From: Podarcis vaucheri
Lineage: Eukaryota
Strand: one strand, 5' to 3'
DNA length: 64,000 nucleotides
Assembly (NCBI GenBank): GCA_965113315.1
Contig: OZ220368.1
Position numbers and translations under genes: made by a program. The notes under the pieces are model-generated. The model was not told the DNA's origin, did not search any database, and saw nothing but the letters and a program-made list of their open reading frames with translations. Of the stretch, positions 3,426 to 47,040 are shown piece by piece (the first letter of the stretch is position 1; every line of letters begins with the position of its first letter).

Positions 3426-4076
3426 CAGACAACCATACCTTGGCTTAATAAGCTGAGATGTGAATGAGCCTCATGCACCCACAGACGGCGGCTTCACCTT
3501 TTGCTTCGTACAAGTCAGGAAGTTTCAGTTAGCTATAGTTTCCCCTTACATTCCGACTGGGAACTGATGGTTTCGAGCTTCCAAACAAGCCAGAATACAA
3601 ATCCTTGGTTTAACATTGGTTTAGGACCGTGACATGTTTAGGAATCATTAACTATAGTTTCTCAGCTTGAACAGAGTTACATATATAGTTTATTAACTAC
3701 TGTTAATTAAGACTAAATCGTTACACTCATGAATGAAAGAACAAAACAGTTGCACTCGGGGAACAAAGCTCACTCATATCTTGGCTTAGTGTGTAATGTG
3801 TGGTCTTTTAAACTTGTTTTGCTGCACACACTGTCCAGTGTGATAAAATGATGGGATTTGTCCACATTGACAAAATACTTTGAGGCAGACTCCCCCCCCA
3901 CGTTATTATTTTTCCTGCCCCCCCAAAAAAAATTGTTCCCCAAAGTTATGCAGGCATAGCCCACACCACAGCCATAGTCCTGTTTTTCATGTGATTCTGT
4001 TAACATTATGTGCCAACCCTTCCTTTAAATCTTGGCTCCAGATTGCACTTTACAATATCTTGTTGATCATTTTCAG

Positions 4077-7780: not shown

Positions 7781-7998
7781 TAATTTTTATATGTTAACAT
7801 CTCTTGTTAATGTTTCTTTAAAAGGTCTCCTGGATAGGAAAAGTACATGGGAAGGCAAATTGAAAGTTCCTATCTGTAGTGATATAAAATCATTACAATT
7901 ACTTTACTAACACCCCTATATCTGTGGCCCCAAGCCCTCTTTCTCACACTTAAGAAGACCAGAGCCTTAGGCTTCTAGTCACCCCTGAGATAGAATAG

Positions 7999-8359
7999 GT
8001 AAAGGTAAAGGTACCCCTGCCCGAACGGGCCAGTCTTGACAGACTCTGGGGTTTGTGCGCCCATCTCACATCTATTGGCCGGGGGCCAGCGCTGTCCGGA
8101 GACACTTCCGGGTCACGTGGCCAGCGCGACAACGCTGCTCTGGCGAGCCAGAGCCGCACACGGAACGCCGTTTACCTTCCCGCTGGTAAGCGGTACCTAT
8201 TTATCTACTTGCCCCCGGGGGTGCTTTCGAACTGCTAGGTGGGCAGGCGCTGGGACCGAGCAGCGGGAGCGCACCCCGCCGCGGGGATTCGAACCGCCGA
8301 CCTTTCGATCGGCAAGCCCTAGGCGCTGAGGCTTTAGCCCACAGCGCCACCCGCGTCCC
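7999..8359 (-). mobile_element. Full-length young Sauria (Squam1) SINE
   Basis: GGGACGCGGGTGGCGC head, (ACCTTT)n tail, TSD CTGAGATAGAATAG (7985-7998 / 8362-8375). Confidence 0.92.
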
Positions 8360-8492
8360 TTCTGAGATAGAATAGAACTAGTTAATTTTATAGCTGCACA
8401 TGCAAACACTTTGTGTAGCAGAATATTACTCACCACCAGACTCTGGTGTTCAGCTTGGGAAGTAGCTTATCTCATTGTTTTTTCCTCCCCAG

Positions 8493-29287: not shown

Positions 29288-29567
29288 TATACATATAGGG
29301 TGGAATGCCATGTAGTGCTAAGTCACTCATTCTAACAGTGCAAGGATTTTTGTTTGTGTATCCCCTCAATCTGTTCTAGGAGTTCCCCTAACACTCTGAG
29401 GAGGGTGTGATGCATGCGTGGGGAGTCCCATTGCACAAGCAGAAATTGTTGCACAGCATCAGAAAGCAGGTGGTGGAGGGAGCAAACCTGCTTACGGTAT
29501 GTGCAATGAAAAATGTATGGATGGATAAGATTAAACCAGCTCTAATTCTATAAACTTTATAACTGCA

Positions 29568-30256
29568 TGTAGACATGTTATTTCTATGTGCCTAGTATAG
29601 TAAAACATTGGTTCTTTTCCTCCTGCATTCTGGGAATTATTTCTATCTTCTCTTTGCTTCTAAAACAGACTATAAGGCCTGTTTATAATCAATCACGCTT
29701 CTCTCCCTCTCTTTCACGCACAAGGCTAAAGGTCTGTGCCTGGCACAGATCTTTCTGTATAGCATTCCTTACATACCACACTTGTCTTCTTTAGTTCACC
29801 TTTAGTTCACAATGATGTGTAAATCACAATGATGTGTTAATCCTCAATGTATAATTAATTGTGTGAGTTTATATAACAATCTAAACATTAGTAAACACCT
29901 TCGTTATAACATTATCAATCTTAGTCATAGGTGGATTAAGAGCTTATATGCCTGTCTAAATACAGCTCTAACATTCTGTCTTTCATGTGCCAAAGATCTA
30001 TGGAGCTATGTAAGCCCGCCTTACATACAAATGAGCCAATAGGATTTCAGTTTCTTTGTCTTGTATTGAGCCAATCAGCCACTGGCACATTCGTGGCCAT
30101 GCTTTTTGTAACTTTGAATAAAAGGAGATGCTGTGAGGCTAGAGGAGGAAGAATCTCTCTCTCTCTCACTTTCATCTGGCACACACGCAAGCTCTCAGAA
30201 AGAAAACATCTCGTTGTCTGTCTTTATTCATCTCTACAAACCCCCAAAAACCAACA
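29568..30256 (+). repeat. ERV 5' LTR (689 bp)
   Basis: Identical to the 3' LTR except C30212/T34456; two GAGCCAAT boxes; AATAAAA at 30117. Confidence 0.97.
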
Positions 30257-30258
30257 TC

Positions 30259-30276
30259 TGGTGACCCCGACGTGAT
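30259..30276 (+). promoter_or_regulatory. ERV primer-binding site, tRNA-Trp
   Basis: TGGTGACCCCGACGTGAT, the 18-mer used by avian sarcoma-leukosis viruses. Confidence 0.93.
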
Positions 30277-30284
30277 CCTGAAGA

Positions 30285-30293
30285 AGGGTAAGT
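30285..30293 (+). promoter_or_regulatory. ERV major splice donor
   Basis: AGG|GTAAGT between PBS and gag. Confidence 0.7.
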
Positions 30294-30384
30294 AATCAGA
30301 TCCCAATAGAGATCCCTTTAGAGCCAAAAGCATTCCTCATACTAACCCGACTGGGAAAAAGTCTAAAGCGCTTAATTCGTTAGT

Positions 30385-31929
30385 ATGGGAGGGGATTTAA
30401 GTAAGGTGCAAAAGGCTCACGCGAAAGAGCTTCTTTCGTTAGTAAGACAGACAATAGACAAAGTTCAAATTTCTCTAAAAGAGATTGAACAGCTACTGCA
30501 GGAAATAAATCATCAATGTCCTTTTTATCAAGCAGAAGGCTCATTGCAAATTAGCACATGGGAGAAGATCGGCAAAATTTTATTTTCCGAGCCACGTGCT
30601 CCAATCAGCTGCCTACTCACATGGCAAAAGTGTGCTAACGCCATAGCAAAATTAGAACAATCTTCTCTTTCAATTTCTCCATTGCTGGCAACTGCAGAAA
30701 CCTCCCCCCCGCCATACCCTCTGATTTTGCCCCCTTTGTCTCCTTCATCACCTAGCCGAAATCCCCCTCCCTTTTCTCCTTCCCTTGCTCCTGAACCGTC
30801 TCAGTTTACAAATTCCCCCCCAATCCCCCCTCACCCCCCTTCTCTGCCTGAACAAGCAAATCGGCATGCCTTTGTCCCTTCCTCTTTGTCTCTAGACCAT
30901 GCTGCTTTGCCAAAACAATATGGAGCCGTCCGTGCTGGGCTTTTACAGGCTAAGCAAGATGGGCTTTTTTCATTGGAAGAAACAGCTGCATGGGCTGGTG
31001 AAATGCCATTAATTTTTCCTCTCACATATCAAAATGCTCCTGGAGGTCAGCAATTACAAGTTTATCATGAAAAATTGCCTTATGCTGTCATGAAAGATCT
31101 CAGGAAAGCCATTAGTGATTCAGGTCTTAAATCTTCTTATGTAATGGGTATTATAGAGGGCATTTCTACCTCTTATACAATGATTCCGAGTGACTGGAAA
31201 GATTTGATGAGGATGATGTTATCTCCAGCGCAATTTTTAGTTTTTGAAAATGAATTTAAACATGCCGCCATAGCTCTGGCTGATCCAACGCATACAGCAA
31301 GCCAGCTTTTCGGCGCTCCTCCATTTGAGACCCTGGCTGCCCAAGCCGTGTTGTCACCTTCACACTTTCAGCGCACTGCAACTTGCGTGCAGCGTGCATT
31401 TCGTAAAATTCCTGTCTCAGGACAGCCACTGAGTTCCTTTGTAAATGTTAAACAGCAGAATACAGAGCCATACCATCAATTTGTGGATAGATTGAAGGAA
31501 TCTATCTGTAGACAGATAGATAATGAAACGGCTCAGAATGAGTTGCTAAAAAAATTGGCTTATGAGAACTCTAACATGGACTGTAAAAAAATGCTGCAAT
31601 CAATCATAAGCCGTTCAACATATTCCCTTGCAGATTTGATAAAAGCGTGTTCGGAAGTAGGGAGTCAATCTCATACAATATCTTTGTTTGCCAATGCACT
31701 TCAGGCTTCCGTGAGACAAACAGGAAACTGTTATAATTGTCACCGTCCTGGTCATTTTGCAAAGCAGTGCAAGGCCCAAGGTGGGACTGCACAGAAGAAT
31801 AATAATGCAAATACCACGACCAGACCTTCCAAAAAATGTCCAAAGTGTGGGAAAGGCTATCATTGGGCAAATCAATGTAGGTCTCAGGGAAACTTCACTG
31901 GGCCCAGTCTCTCGGGCCCCAAAGAATAG
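30385..31929 (+). CDS. gag: ERV Gag polyprotein (514 aa), intact
   Basis: MGGDLS myristoylation motif, beta-type matrix CPFY..GSL..WEKIG, PPPY late domain, MHR VKQQNTEPYHQFVDRL, two CCHC knuckles. Confidence 0.96.
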   Translation: MGGDLSKVQKAHAKELLSLVRQTIDKVQISLKEIEQLLQEINHQCPFYQAEGSLQISTWEKIGKILFSEPRAPISCLLTWQKCANAIAKLEQSSLSISPLLATAETSPPPYPLILPPLSPSSPSRNPPPFSPSLAPEPSQFTNSPPIPPHPPSLPEQANRHAFVPSSLSLDHAALPKQYGAVRAGLLQAKQDGLFSLEETAAWAGEMPLIFPLTYQNAPGGQQLQVYHEKLPYAVMKDLRKAISDSGLKSSYVMGIIEGISTSYTMIPSDWKDLMRMMLSPAQFLVFENEFKHAAIALADPTHTASQLFGAPPFETLAAQAVLSPSHFQRTATCVQRAFRKIPVSGQPLSSFVNVKQQNTEPYHQFVDRLKESICRQIDNETAQNELLKKLAYENSNMDCKKMLQSIISRSTYSLADLIKACSEVGSQSHTISLFANALQASVRQTGNCYNCHRPGHFAKQCKAQGGTAQKNNNANTTTRPSKKCPKCGKGYHWANQCRSQGNFTGPSLSGPKE

Positions 31930-31935
31930 AGAGAT
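31887..31935 (+). promoter_or_regulatory. gag-pro -1 ribosomal frameshift signal with H-type pseudoknot
   Basis: G GGA AAC slippery site, 6-nt spacer, stem1 GGGCCC/GGGCCC, stem2 GTCTCTC/GAGAGAT. Confidence 0.88.
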
Positions 31936-32663
31936 GTCAGCCTTTGGTTTCTGCTGCTGCAAAAGTTACTAAAAATATGCCTTCTGAATTTGCCATTGAT
32001 TTGATTAATCAAGAGACCAAAAACACTGCATTGCCTGGTGAAATCATAATCATGGCCAGCCAAATGGCAGGTCCACTTCCTCCTAATATCACAGGTTTAA
32101 TTTTACCTAAATTTTCTGCTGCAAAACAAGGCATTCATGTCATCCCAGGTGCCTTGCCTCCTGACTATGTGGGCACAATCATGGTTCAATTTTGGAGCCA
32201 TATGCCCATGCAGTTAACAAAGGGTGAATCTTTTGCTCATTTGGTGATGCTGCCTTCACCACCTGATGTTGTTTGCGCTATTGACACTAATCTGCACAAG
32301 CTCTCTTTATCTTTTTCCCCACAGCTTCTAGCTGTGACCCAACGTATTGGAAGAGAGAAACTCCTTCGTAAGTATAAAATCAATGGAAAAATATTAGAGG
32401 GTCTGATAGACACTGGTGCGGATGTTTCGGTCATTTCCAGTAATTTTTGGGAACAAACTTGGCCGCTTGAAACTTCTCCTGAAGTGTGGGGCGTGGGAGG
32501 TAATCAGGCTTCTTGCAAAAGCGCACAGTGGCTGCCTGTCTCTTTGCCTGATAGCTCTGAAGTTATTGCATATATTCAGCCCTGTGTGCTCAAAATTCAT
32601 CTTAATTTGTGGGGAAGAGATTTGTTGCAACAATTACAAGCAACCATTCAAATAAATGAGTAA
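31887..32663 (+). CDS. pro: ERV Pro (degenerate dUTPase-like domain plus aspartic protease), -1 frame from gag
   Basis: LIDTGADVSVI, GVGG flap, NLWGRDLL; dUTPase-like GPLPPNITGLIL...DYVGTI...GESFAHLVMLP. Confidence 0.93.
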   Translation, partial: GKLHWAQSLGPQRIERCQPLVSAAAKVTKNMPSEFAIDLINQETKNTALPGEIIIMASQMAGPLPPNITGLILPKFSAAKQGIHVIPGALPPDYVGTIMVQFWSHMPMQLTKGESFAHLVMLPSPPDVVCAIDTNLHKLSLSFSPQLLAVTQRIGREKLLRKYKINGKILEGLIDTGADVSVISSNFWEQTWPLETSPEVWGVGGNQASCKSAQWLPVSLPDSSEVIAYIQPCVLKIHLNLWGRDLLQQLQATIQINE

Positions 32664-32724
32664 GTTTGTGCTTCCACTTACTTGGAAGTCCACTGATCCT
32701 ATATGGATTCCGCAATGGCCTCTT
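32656..32724 (+). pseudogene. pol: pol remnant: first 23 codons (start of RT), then deletion
   Basis: MSKFVLPLTWKSTDPIWIPQWPL matches the class II RT N-terminal P(L/I)xWK...P(V/I)W(V/I)xQWPL motif. Confidence 0.88.
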
Positions 32725-33611
32725 ATAATGCTACTTGTGCACGTATGGTCAACTGTACGAAACAAAACTGCGTGAAAATGGGCAAAAATAACTTTAATTG
32801 CTCTGATTATGTAAATATTTCTTATATATATAAGTACACAGAACTGCCAGCAGGCTGGTTTTGGTCCTGCCCAGGTTACACTTTCAATTACATTCCGGCA
32901 AACATTAGTCACGGCACACCTTGTTGTTTAAGCCGTCTGTCTATCATATTGCCTGGAAAACATCATTTCTCTTACTCTAGACATCAGCGTAGTGTTGAAT
33001 TGTCTGATGACTGTGATGATCTTGTCTCTCTCCCTAGCAGGTCTGAATACATCTCTTTAGCTGTCTCTCTCTTAGGTGTTCCAGGTTTGGCTGTGCGTAA
33101 TAGCGCAAATATTAATTCCTTAGCTTGCTCTGCAGCAAAATCCCTGAACTTTACCTCTCAGGCGCTTCATCTTCTCAACACAGAGCAAGCCGAACTTCGC
33201 AACGGTTTATTAAGGTCGAAATCTACTTTGGACTACCTACTCATGGTACATCATTATGGTTGCGAACAATTCAAGGAAATGTGCTGTTTTAACATCACTG
33301 ACAATTCTAAGGCCGTTCAAAGGCAAATTTCTCATTTGCAAAATCTCACTCACCACATTAAAAAGGATATCGGATTTTCCGGACTCTGGGATTCCTTTTC
33401 CTTGTGGTCTATGGCGTGGCTCCCTAATCTCGATTGGCTACGCAATGCCTTTTTTTATGTAATTATTATTGTATGTATATTAATTTTGTTTTGTTGCTTT
33501 CTCCAATGCATTCCTAGCCTTACAAATCTTTTTTCTCGCCTTCTCTCTCCTCCACCACCACCTAGCGCGCTCCTTGCAGCCTATTATGCGAAATGGCAAC
33601 GCCACCAGTAA
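32703..33611 (+). CDS. env: 5'-truncated Env (SU C-terminus plus complete TM), ASLV-like, no signal peptide
   Basis: LPAGWFWSC..PCCLSRL, furin site RHQR (32979-32990), Cys-flanked internal fusion peptide, CEQFKEMCC (CX6CC), TM helix. Confidence 0.92.
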   Translation: MDSAMASYNATCARMVNCTKQNCVKMGKNNFNCSDYVNISYIYKYTELPAGWFWSCPGYTFNYIPANISHGTPCCLSRLSIILPGKHHFSYSRHQRSVELSDDCDDLVSLPSRSEYISLAVSLLGVPGLAVRNSANINSLACSAAKSLNFTSQALHLLNTEQAELRNGLLRSKSTLDYLLMVHHYGCEQFKEMCCFNITDNSKAVQRQISHLQNLTHHIKKDIGFSGLWDSFSLWSMAWLPNLDWLRNAFFYVIIIVCILILFCCFLQCIPSLTNLFSRLLSPPPPPSALLAAYYAKWQRHQ

Positions 33612-33788
33612 GAAAAAACAAAAATAAAAGGGGAGATGTGGGTAGGATTATTTTGAGATTCGTTGGCACACCACTAATCTTGAAGTACTTTTGCCCCATC
33701 AAGCCTAGCAGTATTATTTCCGGCATTTGATGGCAAACCACTAATCCGGAAGTATTGTTGCTTTATTCACCTAGTTGCCTTACCTCGC

Positions 33789-33811
33789 AAAGAAGAAAAA
33801 AAAGGAGGAGA
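33789..33811 (+). promoter_or_regulatory. ERV polypurine tract
   Basis: AAAGAAGAAAAAAAAGGAGGAGA directly before the 3' LTR. Confidence 0.9.
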
Positions 33812-34500
33812 TGTAGACATGTTATTTCTATGTGCCTAGTATAGTAAAACATTGGTTCTTTTCCTCCTGCATTCTGGGAATTATTTCTATCTTCTCTTTG
33901 CTTCTAAAACAGACTATAAGGCCTGTTTATAATCAATCACGCTTCTCTCCCTCTCTTTCACGCACAAGGCTAAAGGTCTGTGCCTGGCACAGATCTTTCT
34001 GTATAGCATTCCTTACATACCACACTTGTCTTCTTTAGTTCACCTTTAGTTCACAATGATGTGTAAATCACAATGATGTGTTAATCCTCAATGTATAATT
34101 AATTGTGTGAGTTTATATAACAATCTAAACATTAGTAAACACCTTCGTTATAACATTATCAATCTTAGTCATAGGTGGATTAAGAGCTTATATGCCTGTC
34201 TAAATACAGCTCTAACATTCTGTCTTTCATGTGCCAAAGATCTATGGAGCTATGTAAGCCCGCCTTACATACAAATGAGCCAATAGGATTTCAGTTTCTT
34301 TGTCTTGTATTGAGCCAATCAGCCACTGGCACATTCGTGGCCATGCTTTTTGTAACTTTGAATAAAAGGAGATGCTGTGAGGCTAGAGGAGGAAGAATCT
34401 CTCTCTCTCTCACTTTCATCTGGCACACACGCAAGCTCTCAGAAAGAAAACATCTTGTTGTCTGTCTTTATTCATCTCTACAAACCCCCAAAAACCAACA
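33812..34500 (+). repeat. ERV 3' LTR (689 bp)
   Basis: Copy of 29568-30256. Confidence 0.97.
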
Positions 34501-35195
34501 ACTGCAGTCTGCAAAAATAACTGCACTTGGAAAACCAAAAGCTCCCCATATACTTTGCCAAAAATAACCACACACAGCACTTGAAAAGCACAGCTTTCCG
34601 GGAGGCAGAATCTTTAAGGAGCTGAAAGGAGTCTCCATTACAAAGCATTACCCCTGCAAGAGAGTCTCCTGCAACCTTTAGTTGTTTCTCTGCTTCACAT
34701 AAACCATGGAAACCCCAGCCTATTTAAAATCCTACTTCGGCCCCAGGGTATTTCAACATTAAACCTATAAATCTAATAGGCTTCCTGCATTGTCAAAATT
34801 ATGGTGCGAGTTCTGTGGACACTGTGCAAATTGTACACATACCATATGTTCCTTTATTAACCTCCCTTCTGAGGCCTCAACACTAGGTAGAGACCGCACA
34901 GCTGGAAAGACTGCAAAATGCTCTGATTTTCCTGAAGTGCCAGAGTGACAAAATCCATTTGTCTTTGGCAGAGTAGCCTAATTTCTGATCAGATGCCTTC
35001 AGATTGTTTTGCTCCTAGAGTTCTGCTAATGCAGGAAGTTTTGTTTCATGTAATGGTCTACAATTTATAAGACAAGAACCAGCTGTTAAATAGTATGCAT
35101 GGTGGTAAAACAAAATAGTAAGGGCACTTGCCTAATTTGCAATACTGTACTAATACTACAGAACAGCATTTTTCAAACTGGATAACTGCAGCATA

Positions 35196-44924: not shown

Positions 44925-46675
44925 ATCTGAGGGTTGTAGGTTCAAGAGCCTCAGGTTCTACTATCTTTGGTTTCTGTTTTATTAAGCTTTGCTCTTTGAT
45001 TCCTGCAGCTTGCATAGCAATCTAACCTCACATGTTCAATTTGCAAGAACACCAGCAACACCTAAGCCTAGGAAATAGTACCTTTGTTGCATAACTGGGC
45101 CAACTAATGCTGTATATCTTGTGAAACTATATTGGGTGGATTGACTCAGGAGCACATTTCCAGAAGAGAAAAGAAAACGTATTTTTAGCCATAAATAAGT
45201 TTATTGCTGAGAAACAAGTTGGGAAGGATGAATTTCCCCCTTCTAGGGCATCTTGCTCTTAGCACCGGAGTAGCATTGCATTGCTGGTTTCAGTATAAGG
45301 AGAAAGATTGATGAGTGGGACTTGGTGTGTCTGGGAACCTGATCTTGCATTAATGAGAGCACTGCTATACGACTGCCAAGTGTCTCCTGTCCAGGAGCAG
45401 ACAGAAGGCCAAAGAGCAAAACAGAGTGCATACCTAACAGTCTCATTTGCATTGCTGGAACAACACAAGCCCAAGCAAGGCCATGTCTTGTCAGATTCTC
45501 AGTGTAAGTGTGTGAACCGTGTGTTGTGTTGGGTGCAAACAGTGCTTGTTTTCATATTCTAATTTATTTAAGTGTGTACTATTGCCTAGTAATAGGACAG
45601 ATTTTTTTAAAAAGTGTTTTCTGTGTGTTTGAACCGTATCACAAGACAACCCAAAAGCAGCAGCAGCAGCTGAAATAATCACTGATTTAGAAATGGCAAG
45701 AGGCAACTATCTCAAGATGTTTCCCACTTGTCATATGTTTGGCAATGATAGCTTGGGTCCATGTTCCAGTCTGTTAAAGCCTAGAGGCTACTTGAAAGGG
45801 TAGACAGACTAGAGGGCATCCAAAGATGCTTGGAAAATGTGTGGGCCATTTTATAGGACCCCACCCCGCCCCCTCACAGTTTGGTACTGGCCACTGAAAA
45901 GATCTGTGGTAGCTCTTTCCTCCCCTCTGCTCACGGAGAAAGGACATAGCTAGGCAAATATCTGGATATTTCCTCAACATTGAGAGGACTGTCTTGCAAT
46001 GACTTCTGGAATTCTAGTTTGGCACATGGAAAGGGAGTTCAGATGGCCCATTGCTCACTACAATGGCAGCTGCATGTGCTGGCTCTAAGCTTCCTAGTCA
46101 TAGCATGCATGTATTGGGGCCCAAAGATGTGCTGGGCTAATACACCATGGCATTAACCTTTTGCACCAACCACTTTTCTGGTACGTGGCACAATACTATG
46201 AAATGACAACATTGTGACCTTACATGGGTCATGCAATTCTATGAAAGCTTCCTTGAAATGGATGGTGCTACTTCACCTACCATGTATTAACAAAGCTTGT
46301 TGTTTCACAGGCTTCTTTGGGCATTCTACTGTATTCTGGGATATTTTTATGAACAAGCAGTTTATACATTTTCATATATATATATAAAATAAATAAGAAT
46401 AGTCATATACTTAATTGGTCATAACCACATTAGAAGCATATTCCTAGTGTAGGGTCAGCATCCATTGTAGTTTTATTCTGCAACATTCATCAGTGAATGG
46501 CTGTGTGCAAACTACACATTTAAAGCACATTCAAAACCCACTTCCTCCCTCAAAGAATTCTGGGCATTGTAGTTTGTTAAGGGTTGCTGGAATGCTGCAT
46601 TCAGATTGGTTATAACGCTAGAACTTCTGTCTTGATTTCTCATGTTCTTTTTACACTGCAGTACCTGTTGAGTTA

Positions 46676-47040
46676 GGGACGCGGGTGGCGCTGTGGGCTA
46701 AAGCCTCAGCGCCTAGGGCTTGCCGATCGAAAGGTCGGCGGTTCGAATCCCCGCGGCGGGGTGCGCTCCTGCTGCTCGGTCCCAGCGCCTGCCCACCTAG
46801 CAGTTCGAAAGCACCCCCGGGGGCAAGTAGATAAATAGGTACCGCTTACCAGCGGGAAGGTAAACGGCGTTCCGTGTGCGGCTCTGGCTCGCCAGAGCAG
46901 CGTTGTCACGCTGGCCACGTGACCCGGAAGTGTCTTCGGACAGCGCTGGCCCCCGGCCAATAGATGTGAGATGGGCGCACAAAACCCAGAGTCTGTCAAG
47001 ACTGGCCCGTTCGGGCAGGGGTACCTTTACCTTTACCTTT
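46676..47040 (+). mobile_element. Full-length young Sauria SINE
   Basis: About 99% identical to 7999-8359; TSD ACCTGTTGAGTTA. Confidence 0.92.

Follow-up and report, generated by a model that had tools for sequence, protein, structure and literature searches.

A family of class II (beta-like) endogenous retroviruses (ERVs) in the lizard Podarcis vaucheri carries a pol gene that opens with its own AUG, which overlaps the pro stop codon in the +1 frame. Judged from sequence, this family probably makes a free RT-RNaseH-IN Pol that is initiated at this AUG, whichever route leads ribosomes to it. As that route, we tentatively propose a singly spliced RNA in which a leader donor (D1) is joined to an acceptor inside pro (A1). 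One member of the family lies in the 64,000-nucleotide stretch of contig OZ220368.1 (GenBank assembly GCA_965113315.1) that was analyzed here and is referred to as the window. The original prediction suggested that Pol may be expressed by an unorthodox route, and the conserved +1 AUG junction, together with purifying selection on pol, supports this as probable.

The provirus in the window

The provirus occupies positions 29568-34500 and is flanked at both ends by a 6-nt target duplication (Table 1). It is a very young class II element with a deletion across pol and env; the insertion must be very recent, because the two LTRs differ at a single base. The primer-binding site presumably corresponds to tRNA-Trp; a search of the window for tRNA genes found none. 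The gag-pro frameshift heptamer G GGA AAC was retained in three of four second-subfamily copies examined, and other DNA occupies its place in the fourth. The closest named proteins come from Podarcis lilfordi (best matches: Pol 86%, Pro 67-84%), and a Pfam search with the lizard Env matched no family.

Table 1. Coordinates of the proviral features in the window.
Feature	Position	Strand	Remarks
Left target-site duplication, ACTGCA	29562..29567	+	read from the letters; second copy at 34501-34506
5' LTR, 689 nt	29568..30256	+	one mismatch to the 3' LTR
Primer-binding site	30259..30276	+	from sequence
Leader donor D1	30285..30293	+	exon end 30287, GT 30288-30289; 7/9 match to U1 consensus
gag, 514 aa	30385..31929	+	open; p10, p24, two zinc knuckles
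pro frame, 260 codons	31881..32663	+	aspartyl protease preceded by a dUTPase-like part; stop codon at 32661-32663
gag-pro -1 site, G GGA AAC	31887..31934	+	heptamer in frame at 31887; 6-nt spacer
GC hairpin downstream of the gag-pro heptamer	31900-31919	+	possible second pseudoknot stem, by eye only
Acceptor A1 inside pro	32287..32324	+	branch-point-like CTAAT 32287-32291, pyrimidine tract, AG 32323-32324
43-nt exon inside pro	32325..32367	+	contains no AUG
Donor D2	32365..32373	+	GT 32368-32369; full-length relatives splice it to the env acceptor
Short upstream ORF, 4 codons	32383..32397	+	7 codons in the second subfamily; weak context
Second upstream ORF, 77 codons	32422..32655	+	pol frame, weak context; first subfamily only; ends at the TAA adjoining the pol ATG
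pro/pol junction, TAA-ATG-AG-TAA	32653..32663	+	pro stop overlaps the pol ATG (32656-32658)
pol stub, RT codons 1-23	32656..32725	+	frame then runs through 16 codons of out-of-frame env DNA to a stop
10-nt microhomology at the deletion point	32716..32725	+	3,050 nt missing relative to a full-length copy
env remnant, about codon 194 to stop	32726..33611	+	lacks acceptor and start codon
3' LTR	33812..34500	+	

The 3,050-nt deletion has taken out pol and env DNA, including the env acceptor and the env ATG, and the window copy is a deleted, non-autonomous member that merely retains the junction. Among 41 matches, the same deletion recurs at four places (98-100%) and at one further place (88%). Other breakpoints, likewise just 3' of the pro stop, occur in contigs of relatives. 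The original prediction had offered the Pol expression route as a possible reason for the survival of the pol stub. That explanation is not supported, since the deletion, at its microhomology, removes both the env acceptor and the env ATG. Selection for keeping the stub was likewise discarded as unneeded, the breakpoint having happened to fall 60-70 nt into pol. Elsewhere in the window, positions 7997-8360 and 46675-47038 form an inverted pair (364 nt, 99% complementary, 38 kb between them); both are probably young copies of the same short interspersed repeat.

The pol start codon overlaps the pro stop codon

The pro frame ends with ...CAA ATA AAT GAG TAA. The RT frame, which is the gag frame and lies +1 to pro, reads TAA (32653-32655), ATG (32656), AGT AAG TTT GTG CTT CCA, and its predicted N-terminus from the ATG is MSKFVLPLTWKSTDPIWIPQWPL. 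The AUG has a poor context, with T at -3 and A at +4. No XXXYYYZ heptamer was found between 32110 and 32760 of the window, and none of seven copies sampled from both subfamilies has a slippery heptamer in the 120 nt before the pro stop. Folding 5' of the pro stop yielded nothing significant (z +0.4 to +0.8), and folds 3' of the junction are mildly stable in two of three copies (z about -2).

To assess conservation, 112 loci of the animal's own genome were merged into 67 distinct places, which are the basis of all counts out of 67 given here. An ATG stands at the RT start site in every one of them, and in 65 the frame is +1 with the pro stop 5 nt after the A of the ATG; the two exceptions are a copy with one extra base and a copy in which pro is deleted. 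The betaretroviral arrangement, with pol -1 to pro behind a slippery site, is therefore not what the junction displays, and re-reading of the frames bore out the overlapping, +1, heptamer-less start that had been predicted. The further claim that a stop codon immediately precedes the ATG holds for the window and for 60 of the 67 places; this stop is missing in the second subfamily, where the pol frame is open for 21 codons 5' of the ATG. By place, the junction takes the form TAAATGAGTAA in 52 cases, TAGATGAATAA in 5 and TAAATGAATAA in 3, with TTAATGAGTAA (3 places), TTGATGAGTAA (2 places) and two singletons as rarer forms.

Locus sets collected in different ways agree on this picture, each favouring well-preserved copies as such searches do. 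When junction DNA was used as the query (best 40 of 166 candidates scored, 30 loci retrieved), most loci ran from the ATG into an open pol, and in nine of ten long loci a frame of 869-875 codons begins at the pol ATG, so that the junction is kept in full-length family members. Picking by a foreign Pol protein instead of junction DNA (best 51 of 8,349 candidates scored, 30 retrieved) gave loci in which the pol frame opens at an ATG straight after a stop in 29 of 30 cases. The second subfamily was found by querying the genome with a Podarcis Pol. In all three protein searches of the genome, among the best 51-75 candidates each, every retrieved locus was of this junction type. Full-length relatives with a normal -1 site were sought among these copies and none was found.

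Between the two subfamilies, Pol is 85% identical (dN 0.085, dS 1.08, dN/dS 0.079), and inside the first subfamily dN/dS in pol is 0.10-0.13. These ratios indicate strong purifying selection on pol, between the subfamilies that have the junction as well as within them. Because dN/dS is about 0.08 between subfamilies sharing it, Pol functioned while the junction had its present form. The idea that the junction is an indel in a dead pol was rejected on the universal ATG, the open full-length frames and the purifying selection.

Individual copies depart from the common form. In L112 (= L041), an extra base makes the overlap AUGA (-1 type). L110 has lost the stop before the ATG, so that the 77-codon upstream ORF continues into pol. 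In L111, most of pro is deleted and pol is in frame with env, giving a 1,334-codon frame from the pol ATG. Each of these is a single copy. Four second-subfamily copies (L108, L109, L105 and L107, all on contig C41) differ in the leader beyond the primer-binding site and have other long frames 5' of pro, which suggests recombinants or nested elements.

In contigs of relatives, splice joints link the leader to an acceptor in pro

Twenty sequencing runs contain part of the pro region; none is recorded as RNA, and 15 are presumed to be RNA. Seven different presumed-RNA runs, which come from relatives 80-95% alike, were mapped on the full-length locus L034 (window position = L034 position + 27820). 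The D1-A1 joint, from 30287/30288 to the AG at 32323-32324, is present in contigs of six of these runs (X9, X13, X1, X5, X7 and X12), which represent four studies and two organisms; in these contigs, sequence of the primer-binding site and leader extends as far as D1. The joint was not found in the contigs of run X2. A second joint connects D2 to the env acceptor (L034 4547 to 7326, GT..AG; 32367/32368 in the window) in contigs of X5 and X13, and this acceptor lies 40 nt before the env ATG.

Conservation of the sites is in line with their use. A1 lies 331 nt upstream of the pol AUG, and the AG and GT bounding the 43-nt exon stand at the same offsets in 65 of the 67 places, with the AG shifted by one base in one more. 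The pyrimidine tract of A1 is kept between the subfamilies despite different encoded amino acids, and none of the five codons around D2 is synonymously changed between them. Four Podarcis lilfordi gene models (P0150, P0151, P0152 and P0154) enter pro at the A1 residue, and in contigs of relatives the stretch from the exon to the RT start is free of indels.

The original prediction had raised splicing as one possibility and had noted an HTLV-1-like donor, ATGA|GTAAGT, at the pol AUG itself. Splicing is indeed implicated by the D1-A1 joint, at an acceptor inside pro and not at the proposed donor. The GT of that donor is lost in 8 of the 67 places, and the eight copies without it among the loci picked with the foreign Pol protein retain an open 875-codon pol frame. 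No contig joint starts at the ATGA|GT site, a count that covers 15 of 17 joints in one set and all joints in the other. Splicing of the pol AUG onto env, also proposed, would lead out of the env frame and into a stretch open for just 36 codons.

The uses of D1-A1 and of D2 are unphased in the contigs, because the 43-nt exon is longer than the assembly word, and the exon may serve the env mRNA only. Contig depth for the path into pol, set against the unspliced path entering the exon, was 31.9/25.8 in X5, 22.6/12.8 in X7, 14.6/11.4 in X12 and 9.1/6.0 in X13. It was reversed in X9 (36.1 entering, about 9 beyond), X1 has no path into pol, and in X5 the path into pol leads mostly to a deleted form. 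As evidence of retained pol, these depths were set aside, since depth is flat and a poor measure.

The first exon base after A1 (32325) also falls on a codon boundary near the expected start of the mature protease, with a near-cognate GUG/CUG next in the pro frame; free protease might be a further product of the spliced RNA.

A model for free Pol, and its alternatives

In the spliced model, the genomic RNA would be translated into Gag, and the normal -1 shift would give Gag-Pro. From the position of CCAAT and AT-rich boxes we infer that the transcript begins downstream of 30128, and the leader after 30128 contains no AUG. D1-A1 splicing would strip all gag and pro AUGs except one or two weak upstream AUGs. 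Subsequent use of D2 would produce the env mRNA, and skipping of D2 would leave an RNA that retains pol as its first long frame. The pol AUG could then be reached by leaky scanning or by resumption after a short upstream ORF; the one or two upstream AUGs that precede this weak-context AUG count against the spliced route. The signal region of Env (L034:7366-7560, missing in the window copy) is long and has a basic stretch and the motif PVTWGQIK. These features, in our view, recall the RNA-export proteins Rem, Rec and Rej, and a factor of that kind would carry a partly spliced RNA out of the nucleus. The same PVTWGQIK signal region is found in the second subfamily and in a turtle Env, and the Env is gamma-type. 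Finally, free Pol would enter particles by contacts with RNA or Gag, as foamy virus Pol does, and the protease of the virion would cleave it. By analogy with HIV-1, whose Pol is reported to be packageable without fusion (PMC7019881), packaging of this kind seems feasible in principle.

An alternative that we regard as unlikely, though deserving of attention, is a stop-restart on the genomic RNA, in which ribosomes that have shifted into pro would end at the UAA and a fraction of them would reinitiate at the AUG five bases upstream. Free Pol would then be coupled to Gag-Pro synthesis, and such a process is compatible with the spliced route. The AUGnnUAA spacing, which the original prediction had likened to that of a calicivirus, fits this idea in 65 of the 67 places and in both subfamilies, and AUGnnUGA/AUGnnUAG overlaps are reported to reinitiate in caliciviruses and victoriviruses, in the latter for Gag and Pol (PMC3542737). 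The UGGGA motif of caliciviruses, however, is absent from the 160 nt upstream in all six copies inspected (TURBS motif 1 is expected 40-90 nt upstream), and the nearest motif, TGGGG at -46, is a Trp-Gly codon pair of the protease motif. The final ten pro codons have a synonymous change of 0.14 compared with a pro mean of 0.40, but four other ten-codon windows of pro are equally low. A poor AUG context would be less important for reinitiation, and an unrelated record (L115) has a UAAUG overlap of pro stop and pol AUG; against this, the fold upstream of the stop is insignificant, and because the end of PR is the start of RT in any case, their adjacency requires no coupling. The conserved A1 in pro would also stay unexplained.

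Quite improbable, by our estimate, is a +1 (or -2) frameshift at the pro end, for example with the A site occupied by the stop codon, which would produce a Gag-Pro-Pol fusion and make the AUG incidental. It would preserve the orthoretroviral logic of packaging, and it draws on the open codons 5' of the ATG in the second subfamily, on the mildly stable folds downstream of the junction, and on two of ten control records (L122/L127 and L124) in which pol is likewise +1 to pro. Yet both of these controls have a heptamer and no AUG, unlike the lizard family, and the stop abutting the ATG in most places limits a shift to three codons, in which re-pairing was not evident on inspection; the clade-wide Met starts would also be left unexplained. 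We give still less weight to the idea that ribosomes enter internally, or are shunted, at the pol AUG of the genomic RNA, independently of splicing and of the pro stop: retroviruses are reported to use internal entry (PMC3542737), but the upstream structure signal is absent and nothing specific speaks in its favour. Least credible of all is the reading of the junction as an inherited defect common to the copies, with pol silent and the family copied by the enzymes of another virus. Deleted non-autonomous members do occur, and choosing loci by likeness to well-kept queries favours open frames, but purifying selection on pol is strong and every locus of the three protein searches (among the best candidates of each) has the junction type; a dN/dS of 0.08 at a dS of 1.08 largely refutes this reading.

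Class and reach of the Met start

In a quick IQ-TREE analysis of 47 Pol rows, both subfamilies fall inside a 13-row reptile clade (SH-aLRT 100), which is sister to bird and other beta-like Pols and whose named members come from turtles, Varanus, Naja, Thamnophis and Podarcis. The family is assigned to class II by similarity ranks, the tree being composed of class II rows with class I and III left out. The class II marks are present, namely two zinc knuckles in NC, an N-terminal dUTPase in pro and a -1 gag-pro site, and the marks of Spumaretrovirinae, a Gag without zinc knuckles and a protease within Pol, are not.

The Met start extends beyond Podarcis. Of 240 proteins, 136 extended to the RT motif, 122 of them with sufficient length for the tree; a Met 17-28 residues before the RT motif QWP was found in 10 of 13 clade proteins vs 23 of 109 outside it, a count in which clade rows are not independent and gene callers for metagenomes may write M for GTG or TTG. 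Pols annotated in eukaryotes that start with this Met include 897-aa turtle proteins (four species) and a cobra protein. A larger tree from short alignments gave 11/15 vs 30/150, and the former count was preferred, as the larger tree has low support (42) and a long branch drawn in. In ten control betaretrovirus-like records, pol is -1 to pro in eight, with 26-34 open codons before the RT motif, and +1 in the two already mentioned. In four of these ten records, too, a Met lies 14-23 codons ahead of this motif, and a Met at the RT start alone is therefore not diagnostic. Scans of viral and metagenome data for DNA of distant clade members returned only canonical viruses or fragments.

On balance, we somewhat favour the view that a clade of reptile orthoretroviruses, in lizards, snakes and turtles, has dropped the Gag-Pro-Pol fusion and makes a free RT-IN from its own AUG, through a spliced mRNA or stop-restart, and that it evolved a foamy-like packaging of Pol independently.

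Comparison with known expression strategies

Betaretroviruses such as MMTV, MPMV and JSRV resemble the lizard family in having separate gag, pro and pol frames, the G GGA AAC gag-pro site, a dUTPase in pro, two zinc knuckles and a Pol that is about 40% identical. They are described as making Pol by a second -1 shift (PMC3835772), whereas lizard pol is +1 with no heptamer. The python ERV PyERV is likewise reported from a reptile host, with beta-like gag-pro-pol and gamma-type env (PMC3758190, PMC10536682), features that the lizard family shares, and ERVs related to it are reported in squamates and turtles (PMC6001957). The python strategy is -1,-1 according to secondary sources (PMC3482500, PMC1224870); by description, PyERV has this double shift and no dUTPase, whereas the lizard family has a dUTPase-like domain and a +1 pol with its own AUG.

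For foamy viruses, Pol is described as a product of singly spliced RNA (PMC3185757, PMC3705302). The likeness, as far as these descriptions go, is one of working principle only: an own pol start, an acceptor in the upstream gene and the absence of a Gag-Pol fusion. The lizard family has the foamy-like joint of a leader donor to an acceptor 5' of the pol AUG, seen in six of seven presumed-RNA runs. Foamy Pol, however, includes the protease and its acceptor lies in gag, whereas in the lizard family the protease goes with Gag-Pro and the acceptor lies in pro, so that lizard Pol would be RT-IN only. Lizard Gag also has zinc knuckles, and Pol groups with class II, unlike in foamy viruses. The family thus belongs to the class II ERVs of reptiles and not to the foamy viruses, but its layout of Pol expression likely works like theirs.

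The 43-nt exon has a counterpart in HIV-1 vif and vpr mRNAs, in which a small non-coding exon is reported to have its acceptor used and its donor skipped, so that an AUG of the retained intron becomes accessible (PMC4163160), but that design serves accessory genes there rather than Pol. Termination-reinitiation at AUG/stop overlaps is reported for calicivirus VP2, influenza B BM2 and victorivirus Pol (PMC3542737), with which the lizard junction shares AUGnnUAA-type spacing; unlike the calicivirus VP2 type, it lacks UGGGA, and its upstream frame is itself entered by a frameshift.

According to reviews, foamy viruses are the only retroviruses that make no Gag-Pol fusion (PMC3185757), and orthoretroviruses use readthrough or frameshifting only (PMC3835772, PMC3705302). 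A free-Pol route from spliced RNA has so far been described only for foamy viruses. Our literature search, which covered mostly titles and the beginnings of abstracts, with the original descriptions of python and caecilian viruses outside its scope, returned no orthoretrovirus with its own pol start codon. If our reading is true, a beta-like lineage with free RT-IN breaks the rule and represents a second origin of unfused Pol, and it raises the questions of how Pol enters particles without Gag, how splicing sets the amount of Pol and how a -1 site became a start codon. It would also mean that +1 pro-pol junctions in ERV surveys, reported for 27% of beta-like ERVs (PMC1224870), can be real, though they are usually dismissed as decay. 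The family is young and has many copies, and relatives apparently transcribe it, which makes the question answerable with RNA from lizard tissue.

Other pro/pol junctions in class II records

The overlap in the unrelated class II record L115 (IMGVR_UViG_2706796609_000001), UAAUG at 2545-2549, joins the pro stop and an AUG at the RT start. Its pol is -1 to pro without a strict heptamer, and its relatives P0024 and P0172 (63-66%) also have a Met start; L115 is possibly a second lineage with a stop-restart pol. A literature search for comment on +1 junctions of the L124 type found none. L124 (near 3618-3705), which we take to resemble squirrel monkey retrovirus, and L122/L127 (near 3932-4019 of L127) are related, betaretrovirus-like records. 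In both, pol is +1 (= -2) relative to pro, an A AAT TTA heptamer is present and an AUG is absent. Because they share a common offset, a -2 shift is possible in these records.
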